From sequence record OL960580: 64,000 nt of DNA. One strand, 5' to 3'. This DNA is from Escherichia phage vB_EcoM_SA21RB. Positions 2,483 to 60,240 of the stretch are shown here, in pieces. The notes under the pieces were generated by a model that was given only the letters and a program-made list of their open reading frames with translations, was not told the DNA's origin and searched no databases. The stretch's first letter is position 1; every line of letters begins with the position of its first letter. Position numbers and translations under genes: made by a program.

Positions 2483-3076
2483 TTATTTCAGAGAATTAAT
2501 ATATTCCTGAACATCGGCAGAGGTAGTTTCAACCCCAGAAATATTGCCATTAAAGGTTTCAACTCGGGCAAGAGTATCTTCAATATCAACCTTAGTCAGC
2601 GCTGCAATTTCAACTACATCATCAGCAGTACTAATTCCGAGGGCATTCGCAGCACGAGTTTCACGGATATATTCCAATTTAACTGCAAGTTCTTGGCGAG
2701 CATCATCTAACTCAACTACTTTCTTGGCGATTTCAATTCGCATTTCAGCATAACCATCAGCTTTAGTAGTCAACTGCTCAGCTGTTCGACGATATAGTAA
2801 ACCAAGTTTAGCATGCATTGTTACATCTTGACCTTCAGAAAGAAGTTTACGAATTTCACGCTCTTTTGATTCGGCTTGTCGATTCTTTTCGATAACAAGT
2901 TCACGAATACGTTTTTCTTCATTAATAGATTTAACAGAAGCAGTTTTTAGATCTTTAATTTTATCAAGCAGTTTTGCTGCTGCAGCAGTATACTGTTCTT
3001 CAACAGATAGATTTTTAGCCATAGCAGAACCAAGTTTAGTGCGAATAAACTCAACAATTTTCTTCAGTGTGTTCAT
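2483..3076 (-). CDS. hypothetical coiled-coil protein (position of T4 e.6)
   Basis: ORF track; heptad-rich K/E/A/L composition. Confidence 0.6.
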
Positions 3077-3151
3077 AGTATTTCCTTAGGTTAATTGAGA
3101 TTTAAAATCCGTTGGAGTATTATATCTTGTTCTCCGAGGGGTGTAAACACG

Positions 3152-3550
3152 CTATTTCATTTTTGCGAGACAGATTTCATTGGCTTCCCATTGAGCTTGC
3201 TTAATAATAGCTTTGGATACAGGAACCTTTTGACCATAAGTTTTTGATGTTGAGAGAACAATATATTTGTTTGCCTCATTATGCCAACCCCATGATTTTT
3301 CGCCATGAGTACCTTTAACTACAGCTGACACCTCAACAGAACAACCATCAGCTCCAATCTTGGTATCCACAATCCATTCATTTCTCTCGGCAGCTTCATT
3401 TTCCGACCTCATTTTTTCTTCATACACGGCGGCCCAATCAGTTTTTGTCAAGCTTAAACTAAGAGCTTTCTCTAATTCTTTGGCAGCTTTTTGTTGTTCG
3501 GGTGTTAATGAATTATATAACTCTCGCATTTCTTTATCTTCAATATTCAT
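3152..3550 (-). CDS. hypothetical protein (position of T4 e.7)
   Basis: ORF track; GAGGAGAA SD upstream of ATG. Confidence 0.6.
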   Translation of the reverse strand: MNIEDKEMRELYNSLTPEQQKAAKELEKALSLSLTKTDWAAVYEEKMRSENEAAERNEWIVDTKIGADGCSVEVSAVVKGTHGEKSWGWHNEANKYIVLSTSKTYGQKVPVSKAIIKQAQWEANEICLAKMK

Positions 3551-3567
3551 TATGTTCTCCTCAAGTT

Positions 3568-3599
3568 ACAGGCTCATAATATCTCAATCATGAGCCTGT
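3568..3599 (-). promoter_or_regulatory. 10-bp stem hairpin (ACAGGCTCAT / ATGAGCCTGT) between e.8-like stop and e.7-like SD; possible attenuator or RNase processing site
   Basis: Perfect inverted repeat with 12-nt loop read directly from sequence. Confidence 0.4.
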
Positions 3600-3605
3600 G
3601 TAAAC

Positions 3606-3881
3606 TTATTTCATATTATTGAAATATTCTTCTGCGATTTCGTCGTTATCATGGTAAACTTTAGAAGACAGTTTAACATAACCTTCAGCAGTGAACATGT
3701 TAATCACAACTTTTACAGTATACCACTGACCGTCTTCATTACCCATTACTGCGTAAGTTTCAAACATCGGATGGTCAGGACCGATAACTTTAATATCATT
3801 CACTGTACGACCGAAATCTTCTGAAACGCATTTCATAAAGAAGTTGAACAGTTCGCCGTAATTATCCATTTCATTCTCCAA
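3606..3881 (-). CDS. hypothetical protein (position of T4 e.8)
   Basis: ORF track; preceded by early-type promoter. Confidence 0.6.
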   Translation of the reverse strand: MENEMDNYGELFNFFMKCVSEDFGRTVNDIKVIGPDHPMFETYAVMGNEDGQWYTVKVVINMFTAEGYVKLSSKVYHDNDEIAEEYFNNMK

Positions 3882-3912
3882 GTTGTTTTCTGTATCAGTA
3901 GTTGATAGTTGT

Positions 3913-3942
3913 ATAGTACCATGGAAGAACAGGGATGTAAAC
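3913..3942 (-). promoter_or_regulatory. T4 early-type promoter (-35 GTTTAC, 18-nt spacer, -10 TACTAT) with A/T-rich upstream element
   Basis: Minus-strand GTTTAC-N18-TACTAT; near-identical module recurs at 8177-8206 and 8543-8572. Confidence 0.55.
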
Positions 3943-4075
3943 CGTTTTGTGAAAAATTTTTTAAAAAGTTTTAGAGAATTCTAGGGAGGGAAGGGGCAAT
4001 TAAAGGATAGGATAATATATTATAAAGGGTAGAAACTAAATGATGCCTAGAGAGGTCCAGAAAGGTCTAGATGCC

Positions 4076-4100
4076 AAAAAGCCCTATCATTTAGATAGGG
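4076..4100 (-). terminator. rho-independent terminator downstream of internal protein gene
   Basis: Stem CCCTATC/GATAGGG with loop, followed on minus strand by a U-run. Confidence 0.55.
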
Positions 4101-4108
4101 ATTTAAAA

Positions 4109-4672
4109 TTATTTATCTAGTTTAGTTATTATAGCTTCTGCGGCAGCTTTTAGCTTAGATGCGGTGTTAATACGATTTTTAATTTCAGTATACGCATCGC
4201 CAAGAACATCAAGGCTATCAGAATAAACACTTACACTATTGCGTTCGCTATTTGAAATAGAACCTTTAGTTTTACGATCAAAATCGGTGTACACGTCTTG
4301 AAGATCACGGGCTGCCTTCTTTGCATCATCCAATGCGTCAAGAGCTTTATTCAAAGCATTAACGTATTTTTTAGTGTCAAACATATTCTTAGAAATTTTA
4401 ACAGGTGCGCGTTCAGGAGTAGCTAATGTAGATTTAGGAACCTGAGCGCCAGATGCCAATTTCTTAGAAATTTTGAAAAACGCTTTATTGAATTTATTTT
4501 CTTGACTCATCGTAAAAGAACTATTATCGATGTTGTACATTTCAATAGCTTTAGCTTTCCACTTAAGAAAATCGCCGCGGTCTTTTGGGTCCAAGTGGAA
4601 GAATACTTTAGTAAGATCTGCTTCAGATGGTAATTTTGCTGCTTCGGTTAAAAATTCGGCATAGGTTTTCAT
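4109..4672 (-). CDS. capsid internal protein with N-terminal capsid targeting sequence (IPIII-like)
   Basis: ORF track; N-terminus MKTYAEFLTE matches the T4 internal-protein leader cleaved by gp21 after L-x-E; AAGGA SD. Confidence 0.6.
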   Translation of the reverse strand: MKTYAEFLTEAAKLPSEADLTKVFFHLDPKDRGDFLKWKAKAIEMYNIDNSSFTMSQENKFNKAFFKISKKLASGAQVPKSTLATPERAPVKISKNMFDTKKYVNALNKALDALDDAKKAARDLQDVYTDFDRKTKGSISNSERNSVSVYSDSLDVLGDAYTEIKNRINTASKLKAAAEAIITKLDK

Positions 4673-4760
4673 TTAAAATCCTTGAAATAATTTATCAGTT
4701 GGTTATTAATTATTTATTACTTTGTTATTATCCGTAACAGCATTCTCTATGTGATTCAAA

Positions 4761-4788
4761 CTAAAAAGCCCAACCTTTCGGTTGGGGC
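4761..4788 (-). terminator. hairpin terminator (GCCCAACC-TTTC-GGTTGGGGC); near-identical copy at 5321-5347
   Basis: Inverted repeat followed by U-run on minus strand. Confidence 0.5.
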
Positions 4789-4796
4789 TAAGAATG

Positions 4797-5270
4797 TTAT
4801 TTGATTTGTTTAGCAGACCAAATGCGGTCTTTGATGATTTTTTGAATGTCTTCAACATACTCTAGGTCATGAGCATGTGGGTTATCTTTGAAACTATAGG
4901 CACGGGCTAACTTTTGGCCTTCGGTTTTGATTACTAAAAGCTCTTTAAGGATAGCTTCATACTTAGCGATAATTCCTTTAACAATATTTTTTTCTTGTGT
5001 AGCTTTAGGATCTGCTTTAGGAGCAGGTTTACCCGAAGCCTTTGCAAAAGCAGCACCAGTAGCAACTAAACTTTTCCAGGCCATACTAACCGCATTTCCC
5101 GTAAATCCTTCTGCTTTCATGTCGCGAGCAAATTGGAATCGTGATTCGTCAGAAGCATCTTTATAGGAATATTTACCTGCTGCAATGGCTGCTTTTGCGA
5201 CAGCTTGAATTTCGGTGCTAGATGCTTCATTTAACACCGCTTCATTTAAAAATTGAGCATATGATTTCAT
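4797..5270 (-). CDS. capsid internal protein with capsid targeting sequence, Ala/Lys-rich basic cargo
   Basis: ORF track; N-terminus MKSYAQFLNE (leader-like); late promoter and AGGAAA SD upstream. Confidence 0.55.
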   Translation of the reverse strand: MKSYAQFLNEAVLNEASSTEIQAVAKAAIAAGKYSYKDASDESRFQFARDMKAEGFTGNAVSMAWKSLVATGAAFAKASGKPAPKADPKATQEKNIVKGIIAKYEAILKELLVIKTEGQKLARAYSFKDNPHAHDLEYVEDIQKIIKDRIWSAKQIK

Positions 5271-5350: not shown

Positions 5351-5664
5351 GCCTTGCGGCAACCTTGTCGGGGTTCCACCTGCTAAGGCAAGTGTTTGTA
5401 CGAAACGCCGGGATTCGAACCCGGTTATTAAGCAGTTGACGCTACTTAATATTTTTAAAAGGCCATATCTCGACCATATCCGAACGTTCCGTCAAAAACG
5501 CTACTCGGCTTACGGCAAAGATATTTCCTCGAATCGATAATTCGGTGCGCCGTTTCTGCTGTGGTGTAAGGGGATATTAATAAATCGTAAAGATTTATTA
5601 AGACCAGTCCTTACGCAGGGAACATCAGTCCGACGACTTACCGGTAGCGACCCGGTTTCTTGTT
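5351..5664 (-). ncRNA. structured stable-RNA region downstream of tRNA-Arg, containing a tRNA-like domain; probable counterpart of T4 stable RNAs C and D
   Basis: No ORF; tRNA-like T-arm CCGGG-TTCGAAT-CCCGG with pairing acceptor arms CGGAACG/CGTTTCG plus several further hairpins; boundaries not determined. Confidence 0.35.
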
Positions 5665-5740
5665 TGGTCGAGGCAGTAGGGATCGAACCTACGACCTAGG
5701 ACTTAGAAGGTCCTTGCTCTTCCTTCTGAGCTATGCCCCG
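5665..5740 (-). tRNA. tRNA-Arg (anticodon UCU)
   Basis: Manual cloverleaf: acceptor CGGGGCA/TGCCTCG, anticodon loop CTTCTAA, T-loop TTCGATC, CCA encoded. Confidence 0.8.
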
Positions 5741-5744
5741 TAAT

Positions 5745-5820
5745 TGGGGTGACCGATGGGAGTCGAACCCATGACTACGAGAATCACAATCTCGAGTTCT
5801 ACCAACTGAACTACGGCCAC
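5745..5820 (-). tRNA. tRNA-His (anticodon GUG)
   Basis: Manual cloverleaf: acceptor GTGGCCG/CGGTCAC, anticodon loop TTGTGAT, T-loop TTCGACT, CCA encoded; no encoded G-1. Confidence 0.6.
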
Positions 5821-5934
5821 ATTAATACCTACTCCAACAATCAAGATGTCTTCACACGAAATTAAGAGAAGAGTGATCAGTTCAACCCCGATAATCGCGT
5901 CAAGTAGATATTAATGTGACAGTTGTCACAAATT

Positions 5935-6009
5935 TGGCGGACGTGATAGGATTCGAACCTATAACCAATCGCTTAACAGGCGATCGCTCTGCCATTGAGC
6001 TACACATCC
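5935..6009 (-). tRNA. tRNA-Asn (anticodon GUU)
   Basis: Manual cloverleaf: acceptor GGATGTG/CACGTCC, anticodon loop CTGTTAA, T-loop TTCGAAT, CCA encoded. Confidence 0.7.
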
Positions 6010-6013
6010 AAAT

Positions 6014-6100
6014 TGGTGGGGAGTGATGGAGTCGAACCACCCGAGTCGCAATGACAATGGATTTACAGTCCACACCGCTACCTCTACGGGATAACTCCCC
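6014..6100 (-). tRNA. tRNA-Tyr (anticodon GUA), class II with long variable arm
   Basis: Manual fold: acceptor GGGGAGT/ACTCCCC, anticodon loop CTGTAAA, T-loop TTCGACT, 87 nt, CCA encoded. Confidence 0.65.
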
Positions 6101-6113
6101 TTAATTCTTAATT

Positions 6114-6188
6114 TGGTGGCCCTGGGTGGAATTGAACCACCATCTGGCGATTATGAGTCGCTTGCTTGAACCTTCCAGCTACAGGGCC
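6114..6188 (-). tRNA. tRNA with anticodon CAU; by position the T4 tRNA-Ile (lysidine type) homolog, Met not excluded
   Basis: Manual cloverleaf: acceptor GGCCCTG/CAGGGCC, anticodon loop CTCATAA, T-loop TTCAATT, CCA encoded. Confidence 0.7.
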
Positions 6189-6189
6189 T

Positions 6190-6265
6190 TGGTGCTGATT
6201 GACGGAATCGAACCGCCGACCTTCTCATTACAAGTGAGTTGCTCTACCTACTGAGCTAAATCAGC
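6190..6265 (-). tRNA. tRNA-Thr (anticodon UGU)
   Basis: Manual cloverleaf: acceptor GCTGATT/AATCAGC, anticodon loop CTTGTAA, T-loop TTCGATT, CCA encoded. Confidence 0.8.
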
Positions 6266-6270
6266 AAAAC

Positions 6271-6360
6271 TGGCGGAGGCGATAGGATTTGAACCTATGA
6301 GTCGCCGGAGCGACTGCCGGTTTTCAAGACCGGTGCATTAAACCACTCTGCCACGCCTCC
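6271..6360 (-). tRNA. tRNA-Ser (anticodon UGA), class II
   Basis: Manual fold: acceptor GGAGGCG/CGCCTCC, anticodon loop CTTGAAA, long variable arm, T-loop TTCAAAT, 90 nt. Confidence 0.8.
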
Positions 6361-6362
6361 AG

Positions 6363-6436
6363 TCTCCATACAAGGATTTGAACCTTGGACCTCCTGATCC
6401 CAAATCAGGCGCTCTACCAAACTGAGCTACACGGAG
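6363..6436 (-). tRNA. tRNA-Pro (anticodon UGG), CCA not encoded
   Basis: Manual cloverleaf: acceptor CTCCGTG/TATGGAG, anticodon loop TTTGGGA, T-loop TTCAAAT; 2 nt from tRNA-Ser, consistent with a dimeric precursor. Confidence 0.75.
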
Positions 6437-6446
6437 TAAATTAAAT

Positions 6447-6520
<74 letters not shown>

Positions 6521-6525
6521 AAATT

Positions 6526-6612
6526 TGGTGCGAGAAGTGGGACTCGAACCCACAAGGAAATCATTCCGCAGCATTTTAAGTGCTGTGCCTTTACCAATTT
6601 GACCATTCTCGC
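6526..6612 (-). tRNA. tRNA-Leu (anticodon UAA), class II
   Basis: Manual fold: acceptor GCGAGAA/TTCTCGC, anticodon loop CTTAAAA, long variable arm, T-loop TTCGAGT, CCA encoded. Confidence 0.8.
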
Positions 6613-6613
6613 G

Positions 6614-6686
6614 CTGGGAATAAAGGACTCGAACCTTTGCATCCTGGAATCAAAATCCAGTGCCTTACCAACTTGGCTAATTCCCA
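6614..6686 (-). tRNA. tRNA-Gln (anticodon UUG), CCA not encoded, 1 nt from tRNA-Leu
   Basis: Manual cloverleaf: acceptor TGGGAAT/ATTCCCA (U1-A72), anticodon loop TTTTGAT, T-loop TTCGAGT. Confidence 0.8.
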
Positions 6687-6772
6687 ATTATTAACAAAGG
6701 CTCTCTAACAAGAACCCTTGATGATATAGGGTATTAATCAGTGCGGTATGAGTTAATAATAACAAATAATTC

Positions 6773-7288
6773 TTAAAGCAAATTAAACATCTTAACGGTC
6801 GGCAAAACAATTTCTTCTTCTATATAAGAGTATTTAACACTCTCAACTACACGCAAAAAATCATAATCATAATATTCAGAAGCACTGCCTAAAATATTAA
6901 TAAGTCCTTCAAGCACTTTATTACCATTCACAAAGAATAAGTCAAATACACGTTCTTCGTCTTCTTCGGATTTATTACCAAGGTCAACTTCTATATCAAA
7001 GACCTTTTTAATGAATTCTGGATAAAGCTGGTCTGAGAACAGTCCTTCAACCAAGTATTCATAGATAAAAAGCGATTGCTCGCTGAACAAACCATTACCG
7101 CAATAACGTTCAACTTTTGTGCTAGAATGTCTGCTTTTAAACTTCTTTAAAAGATATTGGAATTGTAAGATTTCATGCTCTTCTACGCCAAACAGTGTTT
7201 TAGTTTTATAGTTGTCACCATCATTTTCCCAGGTAGTGACATCAATTACGTAACCCTGCGGAATTGTAGTACCTAAACAAATATTCAT
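6773..7288 (-). CDS. hypothetical strongly acidic protein, early region
   Basis: ORF track; about 20 percent Asp/Glu; no recognisable motif. Confidence 0.5.
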   Translation of the reverse strand: MNICLGTTIPQGYVIDVTTWENDGDNYKTKTLFGVEEHEILQFQYLLKKFKSRHSSTKVERYCGNGLFSEQSLFIYEYLVEGLFSDQLYPEFIKKVFDIEVDLGNKSEEDEERVFDLFFVNGNKVLEGLINILGSASEYYDYDFLRVVESVKYSYIEEEIVLPTVKMFNLL

Positions 7289-7578
7289 TTGCTCACCATA
7301 TTAATGTAAGTATATTCAATACATTCAAGACCCAAAGGATTCTTGAAAATATCATATTCAAGAGGACCTTTTTCTGTTTCAATAAAGAAATCAAAATTTA
7401 CTGTGTTAAATTTACGGTCTTCCTTCACCAATTTAACTTGAGAAGATGAACGGTCAATGTAAACCTTTTCAACTTCAAAACATGTTAAAATGCCATAATC
7501 ATCAATCAAGGCTTTAGCCGCGTCTTGATCATATTTATATCCATTTTCAATTGACGATACTTTAGCATAAAGAATCAT
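7285..7578 (-). CDS. hypothetical acidic protein
   Basis: ORF track; ATGA overlap with upstream gene. Confidence 0.5.
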   Translation of the reverse strand: MILYAKVSSIENGYKYDQDAAKALIDDYGILTCFEVEKVYIDRSSSQVKLVKEDRKFNTVNFDFFIETEKGPLEYDIFKNPLGLECIEYTYINMVSK

Positions 7579-55465: not shown

Positions 55466-55469
55466 CAAT

Positions 55470-55498
55470 GGGGACCTTTCGGTCCCCATATTTTTATT
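55470..55498 (+). terminator. rho-independent terminator after gene 54
   Basis: GGGGACC-TTTC-GGTCCCC hairpin followed by T-rich tract. Confidence 0.65.
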
Positions 55499-55784
55499 TA
55501 CGGAATGAAATGAAAGCAGAAACTGAAGCAACTAAACTGTCTTCAATATAAACTTCAATTTTTACCGGAGCTTCTGACTCGAATTTACCTGTTACTACAC
55601 CTTGGAAAATACTTTCAGTTTGTTCTGGCTTTGAAAAATTTTCAGAAGGAAAAATTCCGAACTTTTTATCTGTTCCAAAAATTTTGATAAATTCATCATA
55701 AACTGCTTCATTAAAAGCATTATCAGCAGGAATAACGCCTTCAACTACAAGTTCTTGACCTAAAAAGCGCAAAGAAGATTTCAT
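55494..55784 (-). CDS. hypothetical protein
   Basis: ORF track, 96 aa. Confidence 0.5.
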   Translation of the reverse strand: MKSSLRFLGQELVVEGVIPADNAFNEAVYDEFIKIFGTDKKFGIFPSENFSKPEQTESIFQGVVTGKFESEAPVKIEVYIEDSLVASVSAFISFRK

Positions 55785-55844
55785 TTTGTGTTCCTTATGT
55801 TATATCAGTAAGATTACTATAACACAACACGAGGGACTTGTAAA

Positions 55845-57902
55845 CTACATTTTGAACTTTTTAGACATTCCGTTAATGTTAACCAAAGAAGCTAAGATTT
55901 GAGAAACTTCGTTTTCCTCTTCTTTTGATTCTTCTACAAGGAATTGATTAAATCCAGCCATTGGACGAACTTCACCAGTTTCCATTAAATGGTCGCCATC
56001 ATATACTGATTCTTCTAATTGTTCAGAAGGAGGAACGATTGTACCTTCGATTAGATACTTATTATAAGCAGTTTCTTTCATAAAGTACGTACTTACTTTA
56101 TTAATCTTCAGTAAAATTCCACGCGGTAGAATAACTTCAGCTTCTGATGGAAATCCTGATAAATGACCTGGAACGATAACTTTGATTCGCTCAGCTCCTT
56201 TAATTACCATACCCACGCTAGTTTCAGCATCTTCATTAGCATATGTAGAATGACTACCCATATGCATCAAATCTTCTGCATCAACGGAACCTTCTCCTTC
56301 ACCAGAAAATACTGCGCCGGAATCATCTAGAGCCATATAGTTTTTACCATGCTCACCGAAGATATTTGGTTTAAGCGATGTGGATACGAAGTTCTTGAAA
56401 TAGAACATTTTATTTTCAATGTTATGACGCAAAGTTTTAAAGGTAACTTCTTGCCCACGATAAAGAGTAGTTCCTGGAGGAAGAACTGAACCTTTAGCAA
56501 ATGCAGAATCCAACGTCTCGATGTGTTTAATAGCTCGTTCCATATATTCTTCACGAGTAGAATCTGGTTTACCCAAGAGGAACGAGTTCATTTCAACATA
56601 TGAATCTGCACAATAATCTTCAATTACATCAGACTCAGCCTGAGTCAGTCCTTTTGGAGTTACTTCGGTGCTTGCGTATTCATATGCCTGAGCAGCAGAT
56701 TCATTAATCAATTTATAAATGCCATTCATGACAAATTGAATAATAGCTGTCTTTTCATCTGACGTAGCTTTAGAACCTTTAACTAAATCATTGATAATTT
56801 TCTTAATAACATCAAAGCTATTAGAAATATTAATATCAGCAAGATCGCTTAAAATTTTATCAGTTTTATAATCAAAGAATTCTTTATTCTTTAAATATTC
56901 TTGAGAACCTTGATATGTTATATCGCTCTGCAACTTGATGGATGGATCACGTAAACGTGCATGGGCTAATGCAATATGATTTCGGAAGTTTTCTAGTTCA
57001 TAATCGCTAGATTTAAAACGAGAAGCACTTCTCATACCACCGATAGCTCCTTTGCTGAAGTTTGAACCAATCTGAATAACGCCAGAGTTCATTGGTCCTT
57101 CTGCTTTATATACCGGAACTTTAGATTCAAACTCTTGATATTTCTTGGCAGCGAAGCTATCACCCTGAAGCGAAGCATCTACAGTAGAATATTGAGCTTG
57201 CGCTGCTAATCGACGACTAATTTTAGTTTTCTGAATAACAGCTTGATCCGTGCGCTTATCATTTTCTAAAGCAATAGAAGCAGCAACAGCAACAGCTTTA
57301 GGAACAGCATTACCTGTTTTAACATCTACATAAACATCACCAACCTTTGATTCAACTTTTGTGAATAACTCAGTTGAAATAGGAGGTACACCTGGAATGT
57401 CTTCTAAATTGGCATTTTTACGGTAAACCATAATATATGCATACTTTTTATCATAATCCCAGATTTCCTTTAAAAGAACATATCGACCTGCTCCTTTAGT
57501 ACGTACTAAACGGTCAGCAATAACTTGCATTTGACGAGCTGCGCCATTTGTTTTACTTTTTAGTACGCGGAATAGGCATGCGTCAATTTTATACTGTTTC
57601 ATTGTTTGAAGAGCAGTATCAAAAACCGCATTAATAACACCAATTGGATTTCCACCCAAGTTTTTAAGTTTAACTAATGATAGTTTCTCATTAACACCTA
57701 TCATTACGATATGCATCATTTTATCGCCTGGCTTAACGTTTTTATTTGTATCACCGCCAGAGGTGTATGTACAAAATCTAAATCCAGGAAGCACGCTTTC
57801 TTCGCCGGCTTGAATAGCAAAAATTTGAGGTATTTTATGCTTAGGATTTAAGTTAACAACCGGCGCCGAAGCGCCGTCAAATAATTCTGTAATAAGTTCC
57901 AT
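55845..57902 (-). CDS. Alt-family mono-ADP-ribosyltransferase paralog (685 aa)
   Basis: ORF track; N-terminus MELITELFD shared with adjacent Alt gene; C-terminal R (LYRG), STS (FVSTSL) and E-x-E (EAEVILPRG) motifs. Confidence 0.7.
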   Translation of the reverse strand: MELITELFDGASAPVVNLNPKHKIPQIFAIQAGEESVLPGFRFCTYTSGGDTNKNVKPGDKMMHIVMIGVNEKLSLVKLKNLGGNPIGVINAVFDTALQTMKQYKIDACLFRVLKSKTNGAARQMQVIADRLVRTKGAGRYVLLKEIWDYDKKYAYIMVYRKNANLEDIPGVPPISTELFTKVESKVGDVYVDVKTGNAVPKAVAVAASIALENDKRTDQAVIQKTKISRRLAAQAQYSTVDASLQGDSFAAKKYQEFESKVPVYKAEGPMNSGVIQIGSNFSKGAIGGMRSASRFKSSDYELENFRNHIALAHARLRDPSIKLQSDITYQGSQEYLKNKEFFDYKTDKILSDLADINISNSFDVIKKIINDLVKGSKATSDEKTAIIQFVMNGIYKLINESAAQAYEYASTEVTPKGLTQAESDVIEDYCADSYVEMNSFLLGKPDSTREEYMERAIKHIETLDSAFAKGSVLPPGTTLYRGQEVTFKTLRHNIENKMFYFKNFVSTSLKPNIFGEHGKNYMALDDSGAVFSGEGEGSVDAEDLMHMGSHSTYANEDAETSVGMVIKGAERIKVIVPGHLSGFPSEAEVILPRGILLKINKVSTYFMKETAYNKYLIEGTIVPPSEQLEESVYDGDHLMETGEVRPMAGFNQFLVEESKEEENEVSQILASLVNINGMSKKFKM

Positions 57903-57905
57903 GAT

Positions 57906-59999
57906 TTATCCTTGAACGAACTTGTAAGGCATGTTTGTAATATCTATGCAAGACGCAATAATTCCAAGAGATGATTCTACTTTTTGTTTAACATTTGATG
58001 AAACAAATGATGCAAAGTCAACTCTGTCTTCTATTTCAATATCACCTGTCATTGCAACTACTTCACCAGTTTCCATTAGACGGTCACCGTCATAAATTAC
58101 TGATTCGGTGAGTTCTTCCGTAGTCATAACTTCAGCTTGAATGAGTTTTGTATTATTAGATGTTGTTCCGTCATTATTAGAAGCATCAGTTATTTTATTA
58201 ACTTTGACCATCAATCCGCGTGGTAGAATAACTTCAGCTTCTGTTGCTATTCCGAGACTTCCTGGATATACAACATTAACTTTATGTGCGCCGTCAATTG
58301 CCCATCCTATTTGAACTTTAACGTATTCAGGATTTTCTTTATACGCTCTTATTTCGTTTGGATTAATAGTTATTCCTTCTTCATTTTTATCAACTGTCAA
58401 TTCATTACGAGCTTCTGGTTCTAAAAGACCAATACCAGCATGTGTAATTCCAAAACGTCCAAAAATGATAGGAGTTAAAGAAGTAGATACAAAATTTCTG
58501 AAATAGAACACTTTATTTTTAACTAGTGCTTCGTATATAGGAGCAGTCATACTTTGTGCACGATAAACTGTAATGCCTTCCGGTATACGGTCACCATTTT
58601 CAAAAGCTGAATCTAAGTTATTTATAGCAGATTCAATTTCTTTTTCACTCATTACATCATATCGTTCTGGATTGTAGCGTCCTAAAAGAAGATTATTGAT
58701 GTCAGTATATCCTGAACCACAATACTCTCTAATGCCGCGCTTTTGTGATGGAGTATATTTAGAACCATCACGGGCAATAGTAATATCAATCATTGGACCT
58801 GCACCAATTCCAGAAAAGCTATAAATCATTCGTTTGAGGAATTTAGTTTTTGCTGCGTTCCAGGAATTTTTAGTTATTTCTTCCCAGACTTCATCTGGCT
58901 GTCCTTTACGGGTTTTATTATGTTTATCAAGCCAAGTATCTTTATATTCTTCAAAGAATTTATTAATAGCTGCTGCATACTTCTCTAAACATTTTATTGA
59001 AGTAGTTGGTTCATTTTTGATCGCGTTAAAAATTACATCTTTAATTTTTTCAGAAACTTCATTAACCTCACTTTTTGAAAAGAATTTATAATCATAGTGA
59101 AGTTCATCTGCAGTTCCTTCAGCAATAATTTTTGCTGCCTTAGTTTTAGAAGCCAATGAATTAATTCCAAGTTTCATTTCTTCTGCTTCAGGAATTAAAG
59201 GAGCGGTAGCAGGTTTATTGAAATTAGCTGCGGTAGATTCATACTTCTGGAATAATTCACTTTCAAATCTAGAAGATTCCAATGACTGACTTTGTGCAAT
59301 TGCTCTACGGGAAATTTTAACTTTAACGATTACAGCTTGGTCAGAACGTTTATCATTTTCTTGCGCAATAGATGCAGCAATTGCCTCATTTTTAGTTACT
59401 TGAGCTCCAGTATCTTTATTGATATAAACATCACCGACCTTCGATTCAACTTTAGTAAAGAGCTCGGTGCTAATTTCCGGAATTCCTGGAATGTCTTCTA
59501 GTGATACATTTTTGCGATGTATAAGAATATATGCATACTTTTTATCGTAATCCCAGAGTTCCTTAAGAAGGACGTATCTGCCACCCGAACGACTACGGAT
59601 AAGTCTATCAGCAATAACTTGAATTTGTCGAGCTTGACCAGCAGTTTTAGACTTAAGAATACGGAGCATACAGGCATCAATTTTATACTGACGCATCGTC
59701 TGCATTGCAACAGTAAAAACTGAATTGATGTAATTAATTGGGCTTGGACCGAGACCTTTCAATTTAGCAATTGAACCTTTAGCAGTTAATGTAAAAGGAA
59801 CAATATGCATCATTTTATCGCCCATTTTTAAATCGCGATTAGTATCACCTCCAGATGTATAGGTACATAAACGAAAGCCTGGTTGTTCAATTGCGTCATC
59901 AACATGAACTGAAAAAATTTGCGGTATTTTCTTCTTTGGATTTAAGTTTGTAATCGGAAGAGTAGTATCTTCGTCAAATAATTCTGTAATAAGTTCCAT
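57906..59999 (-). CDS. alt: Alt ADP-ribosyltransferase (capsid-packaged, injected), 697 aa
   Basis: ORF track (57906..60002, MM start); second ATG favoured by SD spacing; motifs VYRAQ, FVSTSL, EAEVILPRG; TATAAATA upstream; the alt assignment to this copy rather than its neighbour is tentative. Confidence 0.7.
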   Translation of the reverse strand: MELITELFDEDTTLPITNLNPKKKIPQIFSVHVDDAIEQPGFRLCTYTSGGDTNRDLKMGDKMMHIVPFTLTAKGSIAKLKGLGPSPINYINSVFTVAMQTMRQYKIDACMLRILKSKTAGQARQIQVIADRLIRSRSGGRYVLLKELWDYDKKYAYILIHRKNVSLEDIPGIPEISTELFTKVESKVGDVYINKDTGAQVTKNEAIAASIAQENDKRSDQAVIVKVKISRRAIAQSQSLESSRFESELFQKYESTAANFNKPATAPLIPEAEEMKLGINSLASKTKAAKIIAEGTADELHYDYKFFSKSEVNEVSEKIKDVIFNAIKNEPTTSIKCLEKYAAAINKFFEEYKDTWLDKHNKTRKGQPDEVWEEITKNSWNAAKTKFLKRMIYSFSGIGAGPMIDITIARDGSKYTPSQKRGIREYCGSGYTDINNLLLGRYNPERYDVMSEKEIESAINNLDSAFENGDRIPEGITVYRAQSMTAPIYEALVKNKVFYFRNFVSTSLTPIIFGRFGITHAGIGLLEPEARNELTVDKNEEGITINPNEIRAYKENPEYVKVQIGWAIDGAHKVNVVYPGSLGIATEAEVILPRGLMVKVNKITDASNNDGTTSNNTKLIQAEVMTTEELTESVIYDGDRLMETGEVVAMTGDIEIEDRVDFASFVSSNVKQKVESSLGIIASCIDITNMPYKFVQG

Positions 60000-60022
60000 C
60001 ATAGCCTCTCTAGTGTTTATTC

Positions 60023-60030
60023 TATTTATA
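60023..60030 (-). promoter_or_regulatory. T4 late promoter TATAAATA upstream of alt
   Basis: Exact reverse-complement motif about 25 nt upstream of alt ATG. Confidence 0.55.
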
Positions 60031-60035
60031 AAATT

Positions 60036-60053
60036 AAAGGCCCGAAGGCCTTT
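60036..60053 (-). terminator. hairpin AAAGGCC-CGAA-GGCCTTT at the 3-prime end of the ORF upstream of alt
   Basis: Perfect inverted repeat with tetraloop followed by T-rich tract on minus strand. Confidence 0.45.
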
Positions 60054-60240
60054 AGTAATCTAGTGGTAAGAGAGTACGATATATTTCAAACTTTGGTCCT
60101 TTTTCATAGGCATCAAATGTTTCTGTAAATTTATTATAAGCATATGCATCTACAAATTCGAGAATGACTTGTGATACAGAAGTAGAAACATCTCCACCTT
60201 CTTTTTGAGCAATGACAATTGTTTCTAAGTAAGCTTTCAT
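60052..60240 (-). CDS. hypothetical protein (62 aa) between ligase and alt
   Basis: ORF track; start overlaps ligase stop. Confidence 0.5.
   Translation of the reverse strand: MKAYLETIVIAQKEGGDVSTSVSQVILEFVDAYAYNKFTETFDAYEKGPKFEIYRTLLPLDY

Follow-up and report, generated by a model that had tools for sequence, protein, structure and literature searches.

T4 Alt ADP-ribosylates host RNA polymerase alpha and other targets. To our knowledge, injected ADP-ribosylation has been studied solely in T4, a phage without a working alt.-2. The stretch of DNA analyzed here (the window, 64,000 nucleotides of the T2/T6-like Escherichia phage vB_EcoM_SA21RB, record OL960580) carries two adjacent alt genes, and the question it raises is whether such a phage delivers two transferases with different targets, as an earlier note on this sequence had suggested. 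We infer packaging, activity, and targets for the second product, Alt.-2, and consider it probable that it is a second head-packaged, injected arginine-specific transferase with targets of its own.

A tandem alt pair in a late operon

The ORF listing and the junction between the genes bore out two minus-strand ORFs only 3 nt apart. The first was listed as 57906..60002 (-), 698 aa, starting MMELITELFD; a second ATG at 59999 gives the 697-aa MELITELFD protein, as in T4 Alt. The locus comprises the following features:

60035..60054, minus strand: hairpin terminator 3' of alt.1, directly upstream of the alt promoter (TAAAGGCCTTCGGGCCTTTA, then a T-run)
60023..60030, minus strand: T4-type late promoter TATAAATA of alt and alt.-2 (exact match, 23 nt 5' of the ATG at 59999)
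57906..59999, minus strand: alt, 697 aa, RB32/T2/T6-type allele
55845..57902, minus strand: alt.-2, 685 aa, second Alt-family ADP-ribosyltransferase
55816-55844: sigma-70-like promoter of alt.-3 (TTTACA-17-TATAGT)
55494..55784, minus strand: alt.-3, 96 aa, DUF5498 (PF17602, E = 5e-64), the final gene ahead of the terminator
55468..55489, both strands: bidirectional hairpin terminator of gene 54 (+) and alt.-3 (-), with a 9-bp stem and T-runs on each side

The region is a late operon, running from the TATAAATA promoter through alt, the 3-nt spacer, and alt.-2 to alt.-3. The late promoter was found upstream of the first gene, where it had been proposed, and TATAAATA occurs 25 times in the window against 9.6 expected by chance. 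The alt/alt.-2 junction reads caaggaTAAatcATG, with 3 nt from stop to start; the AAGGA Shine-Dalgarno for alt.-2 sits within the 3' end of alt, and no terminator was found between alt and 55489. The gene order in the window (48, 54, alt.-3, alt.-2, alt, alt.1, 30) matches that of T4, RB32, T2, and T6, with alt and alt.-2 between gene 54 and gene 30 behind the late promoter, the arrangement that marks an alt family locus.

As a genomic feature, the pair is ordinary and its importance modest. The novelty implied by the earlier note is unsupported, because T2, T6, RB32, and about 400 further records all contain the pair in conserved, annotated form; T4 does not. The tandem pair is already known and is the normal annotated state of most T4 relatives, T4 being the exception. 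Full-length Alt.-2 orthologues (at least 95% identity) were found in about 400 phage records, and Tequatrovirus records often carry the annotation ‘Alt-like RNA polymerase ADP-ribosyltransferase (x2)’, with pairs in the hundreds. The best DNA match was ECO07P1 (98.1%); the pair is shared with T2 and T6 at 98-99% protein identity and with RB32 at about 97% DNA identity. GenBank has annotated it from the RB32 and JS98 records onward, if not earlier, and a 2006 paper already mentioned the duplication of alt (PMC1524935). We found no paper in the literature describing the second enzyme.

Both proteins keep an intact catalytic domain

The two proteins are divided as follows:

59982..59999, minus strand: Alt N-terminal propeptide MELITE, ending at gp21 site ITE-6 (motif search; T4 Alt loses these six residues too, PMC5694885)
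58113..59285, minus strand: Alt effector cassette (helical module 58764-59285, ART domain 58113-58763)
57909..58103, minus strand: 65-aa acidic propeptide at the Alt C-terminus, following LTE-632 (counterpart, by alignment, of LTE-619 in T4 Alt)
57876..57902, minus strand: opening 27 nt of alt.-2, which encode MELITELFD with its ITE-6 and match the start of alt (59973-59999) exactly
57198..57884, minus strand: aa 7-235 of Alt.-2, the N-terminal domain (Pfam PF26846 Tevenvirinae_ADPRT) and proposed delivery module
56658..57197, minus strand: Alt.-2 central helical module, aa 236-415 (helical, pLDDT 80-92)
56019..56657, minus strand: Alt.-2 ART domain, aa 416-628 (Pfam stretch 416-620; fold matches)
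55848..56009, minus strand: 54-aa acidic propeptide at the Alt.-2 C-terminus, following LEE-631 (E631 and Y-D-G-D...E-x-G-E are invariant columns)

Both proteins matched PF03496 ADPrib_exo_Tox well above the Pfam gathering cut-off of 23.4 bits, Alt with 129.2 bits (E = 1.7e-37) and Alt.-2 with 72.0 bits, and both covered positions 2-674 of the 674 of phrog_802 (E = 3e-272 and 9e-257, respectively). Against T4 Alt, the identity of Alt was 70% by BLASTP and 72% by global alignment; against Alt of T2 and T6, it was 98-99%. The R / S-T-S / E-x-E signature that had been read in both proteins was located at YRAQ (R480), FVSTS (S505-T506-S507), and EAEV (E587/E589) in Alt, and at YRGQ (R482), FVSTS (S507-T508-S509), and EAEV (E587-x-E589) in Alt.-2. 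Loss of catalytic residues in one copy was looked for by alignment, and all proved intact: in 24 sequences spanning the Alt, Alt.-2, and JS10 AltB types, R482, S507, S509, E587, and E589 of Alt.-2 are invariant and T508 is nearly so. The YR and ExE of both enzymes align with those of CDTa. We predict E587/E589 to be catalytic in Alt.-2; in T4 Alt, the ‘E577A’ mutant is inactive (PMC11404850).

A Foldseek search with the AlphaFold model of Alt.-2 returned Vis as the top match (E = 1.8e-6), then Certhrax, CDTa, C3, VIP2, and iota toxin. As modeled, the catalytic domain is a C2/C3-like R-S-E ADP-ribosyltransferase fold, with an acidic, poorly modeled insert of about 35-40 residues from STS to ExE; pLDDT falls below 50 only in both propeptides and two short loops. 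Together with the Pfam and full-length PHROG 802 matches and the invariant catalytic residues, this upheld the proposed Alt-family identity. The fold does not reveal substrate choice, and RNAylation of proteins is known from another R-S-E enzyme, T4 ModB (bioRxiv 10.1101/2021.06.04.446905), so one may ask whether the reaction of Alt.-2 is other than the modification of protein arginine with plain NAD+, such as joining NAD-capped RNA to proteins or modifying nucleic acids. We regard this as very unlikely: arginine is indicated both by the E-x-E motif and by the top structural match, Vis, which is an NAD+-arginine transferase, and there is no positive evidence for the alternatives.

The coding sequence of alt.-2 is, by its substitution pattern, under strong purifying selection, with dN/dS of 0.022-0.046 among the window, RB32, T2, and T6 (0.02-0.055 for alt). 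That Alt.-2 is decaying or inactive and heading for loss as in T4, a fate to which the T4-type deletion in 91 records and the truncated products P0007, P0008, and P0010 might point, is barely credible given the roughly 400 records with a full-length orthologue at 95% identity or more, the catalytic residues, and the selection data (42-60 synonymous vs 4-9 non-synonymous differences per pair), which nearly refute it.

Shared ends predict processing and delivery

T4 Alt is present at about 40 copies per capsid, is injected with the DNA, and is non-essential (PMC9026906). Its trimming by the T4 prohead protease gp21 at ITE-6 and LTE-619 removes a 63-aa C-propeptide and leaves 613 aa of 68.2 kDa (PMC5694885). 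A motif search for gp21 sites reproduced these published values exactly and placed sites at both ends of Alt and Alt.-2: ITE-6 in each, and an L-x-E about 55-65 residues from the C-terminus, followed by SV(I)YDGD. In Alt.-2 the latter is LEE-631, before SVYDGD, and E6 and E631 are invariant in the alignment; these predicted sites rest on short motifs (I/L-x-E) and give Alt.-2 expected trimmed ends at L7 and E631. The C-terminal propeptides are acidic in both proteins (pI 4.2 in Alt; pI 4.6, with pLDDT of about 35, in Alt.-2), and that of Alt keeps 97-100% nucleotide identity to T4 over most of its length. Mature Alt.-2 would be less basic than Alt (pI 7.3 vs 8.05-8.4); this, and the acidic insert beside its active site, count against the reading of Alt.-2 as a second injected transferase.

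Both proteins start MELITELFD, as had been noted, and the 27-nt start sequence has two exact matches with none expected by chance; since the rest of the N-terminal domain is only 66% identical at the nucleotide level, 27/27 identity has P ~1.4e-5. The N-terminal domain that follows was seen in Alt-like proteins only, and its PF26846 assignment was precomputed on P0001 (99% identical) and on both L006 genes. A GNAT acetyltransferase fold was considered for this domain and rejected, with no clear structural or sequence match to GNAT enzymes.

In the proposed mechanism, Alt and Alt.-2 would enter the prohead core via their shared ends, be trimmed to about 69-70 kDa, and be injected together with the DNA; each would then ADP-ribosylate its own set of host proteins on arginine, RNA polymerase alpha and other known targets in the case of Alt. 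In the literature, we found no report of Alt.-2 being made, packaged, cleaved, injected, or active, and none of it in proteomics. Alt.-2 might alternatively go undelivered, as a late product acting in the producing cell or mainly a part of the prohead core, its activity then being irrelevant to the next infection. A frameshifted alt.-2 variant, which lacks the propeptide because its first 61 residues are missing, still shows a low dN/dS of 0.05-0.06 and could mean use without packaging, but a recent frameshift explains this equally well. With the 27 propeptide-coding nucleotides identical to those of alt, E6 and E631 invariant, and the N-terminal domain confined to Alt-like proteins, we think an undelivered Alt.-2 quite unlikely.

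Diverged centers suggest different targets

Overall, Alt and Alt.-2 share 41% identity over their full length (BLASTP, E = 3e-158), distributed unevenly, as the earlier note had described: it falls from 68% over residues 1-235 to 17-18% over 236-470 and rises again to 37% for the catalytic domain and 43% for the C-terminal tail. The N-terminal domains of the Alt and Alt.-2 groups are plainly homologous (hhalign E = 5e-117), whereas the central module of Alt.-2 (aa 236-380) had no detectable homology to that of Alt (hhalign probability 0.4%, E = 0.14). In hhalign, homology picks up again only near aa 415, so that the non-homologous helical module extends from aa 236 to about aa 380-415 of Alt.-2, a length of roughly 145-180 residues. 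The active-site loops, including those before E-x-E, are also unlike. Their sequences mark alt and alt.-2 as two ancient paralogues of the T4 Alt ADP-ribosyltransferase.

Alt.-2 could still be a redundant back-up, packaged and injected like Alt and acting on essentially the same targets, kept for dosage or for robustness against blocking host factors. Architecture, catalytic motif, and operon are all common to the two, T4 grows well with Alt alone, and Alt itself can be dispensed with (PMC9026906). Yet one would not expect two functionally equivalent copies to have lasted at dN/dS of about 0.03 since before the Tequatrovirus/Dhakavirus split. In addition, Alt.-2 has an unrelated central module, and its ART domain is just 37% identical to that of Alt, with unlike loops before E-x-E; we therefore hold a back-up role to be unlikely. 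Two delivered enzymes with different targets would fit the kept gp21 motifs, the propeptide, the purifying selection, and the unrelated helical module, and two such enzymes are probably injected by T2, T6, and most wild relatives.

The same modularity appears within alt. Between the window and T4 alleles, nucleotide identity drops from 97% to 42-73% over aa ~250-630, with third codon positions near saturation, and returns to 97-100% downstream of aa ~630. On this alignment, the Alt effector cassette is deeply diverged from the T4 allele, as by a cassette swap within alt. The shared ends would form a delivery module and the center an exchangeable effector cassette, of which Tequatrovirus has at least three deeply diverged forms (the T4-Alt, RB32/T2/T6-Alt, and Alt.-2 types). 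More tentatively, T-even phages may have at the alt locus a system of injected effectors that is both modular and polymorphic, in which a conserved delivery module, made up of the propeptide, the N-terminal domain, and the acidic C-propeptide, carries interchangeable helical-plus-ART cassettes, and Alt.-2 may have a distinct target, possibly a host defense or stress system. If this were true, half of the T-even ‘alteration’ chemistry would have escaped work on T4, the one model phage to have lost alt.-2.

T4 carries a relic of alt.-2

In line with the earlier note, T4 has a single gene of Alt size (682 aa). Beside it are two short remnant ORFs, alt.-1 and alt.-2 (NP_049810, NP_049809), which share the locus and the first 118 codons with alt.-2 of the window. 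Three sites in the window correspond to the lesions:

57739..57743, minus strand: A5 run, codons 54-55 of alt.-2; A4 in T4, splitting the gene into alt.-1 and alt.-2 (alignments)
57555..57563, minus strand: upstream 9-mer CTAAAAAGT, left end point of the T4 deletion
55856..55864, minus strand: downstream CTAAAAAGT copy, right end point of the T4 deletion, 1,699 bp away

Read against the full-length gene, T4 alt.-1/alt.-2 is a relic of alt.-2 produced by a 1-nt loss in the A5 run and a 1,699-bp deletion between the CTAAAAAGT repeats. The comparison contradicts the T4 annotation, in which just the first part of alt was duplicated; these ORFs should be annotated as a deletion relic instead of a partial duplication. 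The T4-type junction was found in T4 and 90 other phage records, and a contig with the frameshift only, and no deletion, has a linked SNP in common with T4. The loss in T4 took two steps, the frameshift first and the 1.7-kb deletion across the 9-bp repeats second. Since frameshifted or truncated copies exist, alt.-2 would be dispensable on some hosts.

Comparison with known systems

The Alt.-2 genes of RB32 (YP_803136), T6 (AXN58232), and T2 (BBF63359) agree with that of the window in gene lengths (2094 + 2058 nt for the pair), 3-nt spacer, and neighbors; RB32 alt.-2 differs by 4 amino acids, and between these pairs and the window's there is no difference of substance. T4 Alt (NP_049811) is the orthologue of the window's alt; it shares the R-S-ExE triad and the gp21 sites, and its gene lies in the same position behind the same late promoter. 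Over the first 240 residues and in the C-terminal propeptide the two proteins differ little or not at all, whereas the effector (aa ~250-630) is 41% identical in the helical part and 65% in the ART domain, with an insert 15 residues longer in the window.

Farther away, the Dhakavirus phages JS98 and JS10 have a tandem AltA/AltB pair in the equivalent place, and AltB ends ...KFKM like Alt.-2. Alt best matches its JS98 orthologue AltA (48%, 644 bits) and Alt.-2 best matches its own, AltB (48%, 625 bits), although the N-terminal domains are closer to the same-genome paralogue (68%) than to the orthologue in the other genus (42-46%). AltB has S-A-S where the window has S-T-S, and a longer acidic insert.

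With the C2/C3-like R-S-E toxins (Vis, C3, iota Ia, CDTa, VIP2, Certhrax), Alt.-2 has the ART fold and triad in common. Unlike them, it is without toxin delivery domains and has a phage-specific N-terminal domain, a helical module, two ends predicted to be removed by protease, and the ~35-40-residue insert from STS to ExE. In logic only, Alt.-2 can be likened to T4 Ip1, Ip2, and Ip3, which are non-essential, polymorphic, head-packaged, cleaved of an N-terminal targeting peptide, and injected, but are small, non-enzymatic, and unrelated in sequence. Each T4 Ip blocks one GmrSD variant (PMC12373910), and a distinct target of Alt.-2 would be comparable to the single variant that each Ip protein disarms.

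The alt and alt.-2 genes form a tandem pair

The window derives from a T4-like phage of the genus Tequatrovirus and encodes two adjacent proteins, Alt (697 aa) and Alt.-2 (685 aa). The earlier note, made from the sequence alone, had described these as two tandem Alt-family ADP-ribosyltransferase genes. Our ORF listing returned the same coordinates for both, and the catalytic motifs quoted in the note are correct. Membership of the Alt family was likewise confirmed: a full-length alignment of the two proteins gives 41% identity (E = 3e-158), both pass the Pfam family PF03496, and both match PHROG 802 (“Alt-like RNA polymerase ADP-ribosyltransferase”) along its length. A search against NCBIfam gave no matches.

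Features of the alt region (window coordinates)
60023-60030, minus strand: late promoter TATAAATA, 23 nt before the alt start and directly after the hairpin terminator that ends alt.1
57906-59999, minus strand: alt, from the ORF listing; the ORF itself begins a codon upstream, at 60002 (ATGATG)
55845-57902, minus strand: alt.-2, from the ORF listing
55816-55844, minus strand: sigma-70-like promoter of alt.-3's own
55468-55489, both strands: bidirectional hairpin, the first terminator-like site downstream of alt on the minus strand

Shine-Dalgarno spacing and the T4 protein favour the second ATG as the probable start of alt. Only 3 nt separate the alt stop from the alt.-2 start (TAAatcATG), with an AAGGA inside the 3' end of alt. 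We saw no terminator-like site on the minus strand between the alt promoter and the hairpin at 55468-55489, so alt, alt.-2 and the downstream gene alt.-3 can potentially share a single late transcript. A second TATAAATA, at 58619-58626 (minus strand), falls within the alt coding sequence roughly 700 nt upstream of alt.-2; it spans the codons Ala-Ile-Asn-Asn (A-I-N-N), in a stretch where the gene is diverged from its T4 counterpart. We considered it as an internal late promoter for alt.-2 and rejected this reading, since chance alone would give about 10 of these sites in the window; in such AT-rich DNA the match is probably accidental.

The neighbours of the pair are small genes. Directly downstream of alt.-2 is alt.-3 (55494-55784, minus strand; 96 aa, DUF5498); T4 alt.-3 mutations that extend its C-terminus lead to escape from the CmdTAC defence through blocked CmdA degradation (PMC11618068). 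On the other side, alt.1 (60052-60240, minus strand) lies between alt and the DNA ligase gene and matches PF24647 (“Phage blade protein”, E = 1.9e-29); immediately after its stop comes the hairpin terminator upstream of the alt late promoter. Elsewhere in the window, at 5665-6686 (minus strand), we observed a cluster of 11 tRNA genes (Arg-tct, His-gtg, Asn-gtt, Tyr-gta, Met/Ile-cat, Thr-tgt, Ser-tga, Pro-tgg, Gly-tcc, Leu-taa and Gln-ttg). The reference T4 has 8, so that His, Asn and Tyr would be additional here.

Modular architecture and cassette exchange

Both proteins share one layout: a propeptide, an N-terminal alpha/beta domain (aa 7-235), a helical module, a catalytic domain and an acidic tail. 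Alt and Alt.-2 are 68% identical in the N-terminal domain, 37% in the catalytic domain and 43% in the acidic tail. When profiles of Alt-type and Alt.-2-type sequences were compared, the N-terminal domains matched at E = 5e-117 and the catalytic domains at E = 3.5e-43; over residues 236-380 homology was undetectable (probability 0.4%), resuming only at about residue 415. The two proteins also differ in the loop before E-x-E and in the long insert after S-T-S, elements that contribute to substrate choice in related toxins.

The cassette formed by the helical module and the catalytic domain also varies among alleles of alt. At the nucleotide level, identity between alt of the window and of T4 is 97% in codons 1-240 and returns to that level from about codon 660, whereas the middle stretch is only 42-73% identical, with third positions near saturation, and identity climbs back from about 80% to 90% across codons 600-660. 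This pattern shows an exchange of cassettes within alt itself. Of the two alleles, that of the window is found in 316 records and the T4 type in about 212. They combine freely with alt.-2: in phage OE5505, a complete alt.-2 accompanies a T4-type alt.

The N-terminal domain is apparently confined to the Alt family. Searching 1.84 billion representative proteins recovered 69 matches; in nearly all of them the protein measures 600-712 residues and begins with this domain. Seven of ten odd-sized carriers scored above the PF03496 cut-off, one (P0122) had a sub-threshold, truncated match, and two had no Pfam match. Two distant carriers, P0184 (541 aa) and P0183 (485 aa), lack a Pfam match to the ADP-ribosyltransferase domain: in P0183 the catalytic motif is degenerate (LYKN / TSCS / N-S-E in place of YR / STS / ExE), and P0184, alone among the ten, has an unrelated C-terminal part without visible R-S-E motifs. 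With almost all 69 matches Alt-like and only P0184 unrelated at its C-terminus, the case for the domain as a carrier of other effectors was too thin, and we rejected it. We also dropped a GNAT-like reading of the domain.

T4 as a derived state

Downstream of alt (682 aa), T4 (NC_000866) has the short ORFs alt.-1 (61 aa) and alt.-2 (67 aa), which the annotators of that record interpreted as an old, partial duplication covering the beginning of alt. Aligning the DNA revealed that this stretch is a fusion: 350 nt from the 5' end of the window's alt.-2 are joined to the final few codons of that gene and its 3' untranslated region. The joint falls at the 9-mer CTAAAAAGT, of which the intact alt.-2 has two copies (57555-57563 and 55856-55864) 1,699 bp apart, and the odd C-terminus of the T4 alt.-2 product, SLQVPRVVL, is translated 3' untranslated region. 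T4 also has one A fewer in the A5 run at 57739-57743, a loss that results in the alt.-1 stop and a restart at codon 62. We thus read T4 as the derived state relative to a full-length alt.-2.

A 53-kb metagenome contig from ENA (L006) bears on the order of events. It shares with T4 both the A4 run and the linked G-to-A change, with the remainder of the gene still present: its alt.-2 (2819-4875) is called as ORFs of 61 and 624 aa, and the 1.7-kb deletion is absent. Since the frameshift and the linked change occur here without the deletion, the frameshift likely came first and the deletion later. The product of this frameshifted copy belongs to a cluster of 36 member sequences (P0007), and the copy has a dN/dS of 0.05-0.06, roughly double the value for intact genes. 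The T4-type junction was found in 91 records, natural isolates as well as T4 stocks. Two more shortened alt.-2 products, P0008 (528 aa) and P0010 (415 aa, 14 contigs), point to additional independent disruptions or, alternatively, to gene-calling after sequencing errors.

Alt.-2 is under selection and has a conserved catalytic site

Comparing the window, RB32, T2 and T6 pairwise, we counted 42-60 synonymous and 4-9 non-synonymous differences per pair in alt.-2. The resulting dN/dS of 0.022-0.046 is as low as that of alt (0.022-0.055). R482, S507, S509, E587 and E589 are invariant in an alignment of 24 sequences of Alt, Alt.-2 and the JS10 AltB type. In the AlphaFold model of Alt.-2 (mean pLDDT 74.8), the top solved-structure matches of the catalytic domain are all R-S-E transferases (Foldseek, Vis, E = 1.8e-6). 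The E-x-E motif and the match to Vis, an NAD+-arginine transferase, support, given what is known of the family, arginine as the probable acceptor. Searching the PDB by sequence recovered no solved structure of Alt.

An inactive T4 Alt mutant has been reported as Alt E577A (PMC11404850). The NC_000866 translation of T4 Alt (5455-7503, minus strand, of our T4 locus L001) reads E574-M575-E576, with Val at residue 577, and its numbering agrees with the published LTE-619 site. The residue number in E577A appears to be shifted by one, either in that paper or in its construct.

Putative signals for delivery

Mass spectrometry of T4 Alt showed that six residues are removed after ITE-6 and 63 after LTE-619, leaving 68.2 kDa (PMC5694885), and the protein is present at about 40 copies per head (PMC9026906). 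Our motif search for cleavage sites, run on T4 Alt, reproduced the published numbers exactly. It located ITE-6 and LTE-632 in the window's Alt, and ITE-6 and LEE-631 in Alt.-2, whose mature form is thereby predicted to have 625 aa and 69.1 kDa. E6, E631 and the following YDGD..E.GE are invariant columns of the 24-sequence alignment, the disordered parts of the Alt.-2 model are its two ends, and both C-terminal tails are acidic (pI 4.2 in Alt, 4.6 in Alt.-2). The first 27 nt are identical in the two genes, the remaining N-terminal domain being 66% identical with saturated synonymous sites. Though short of proof, the cleavage motifs, invariant glutamates, disordered ends, acidic tails and 27-nt identity together argue that the head assembly machinery would handle Alt.-2 in the same way as Alt.

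Age of the duplication

Of the two JS98 proteins, AltA is the better match for Alt (48%, 644 bits, versus 32% for AltB) and AltB for Alt.-2 (48%, 625 bits, versus 32% for AltA). This pairing implies that the two kinds of cassette are older than the split between Tequatrovirus and Dhakavirus. The N-terminal domains (window 57198-57902 and 59295-59999, compared with JS98) display the opposite pattern to these effector parts: paralogues within a genus are 68% identical, whereas orthologues across genera reach 42-46%. This pattern fits old homogenisation (concerted evolution), or a delivery module that has co-evolved with the head in each genus; it also fits movement of cassettes between genera. 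Recent gene conversion between alt and alt.-2 is ruled out by third-position identity of about 50% throughout, save those first 27 nt.

Occurrence in known phages

Our literature search found no paper on the Alt.-2 protein, and nothing specific on virion proteomics with two Alts or on altA/altB. What the analysis adds is the two-step origin proposed for the T4 relic, the cassette structure of the locus, and the conserved protease sites and selection data, which argue for a second delivered enzyme.

The earlier note's observation was real and correctly read, but the two-gene arrangement is not new. Among 50,697 phage records, 544 match the 4.9-kb region (top match Escherichia phage ECO07P1, 98.1%), 343 of them covering at least 80% of it, and an Alt.-2 orthologue of at least 80% identity occurs in 402 (at least 95% in 396 of these). 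In RB32 alt.-2 is full-length and now carries the name “Alt-like RNA polymerase ADP-ribosyltransferase”; T2 and T6 have pairs of the same sizes as the window's (2094 + 2058 nt), with proteins 98-99% identical to those encoded here; and JS98, of the genus Dhakavirus, has altA and altB at the corresponding place. Nolan et al. 2006 already listed paralogous alt copies in RB49 and 44RR and named the T4 alt.-1 and alt.-2 ORFs (PMC1524935). The tandem pair is thus a known and common arrangement, the standard annotated pair of T2, T6, RB32 and most Tequatroviruses.
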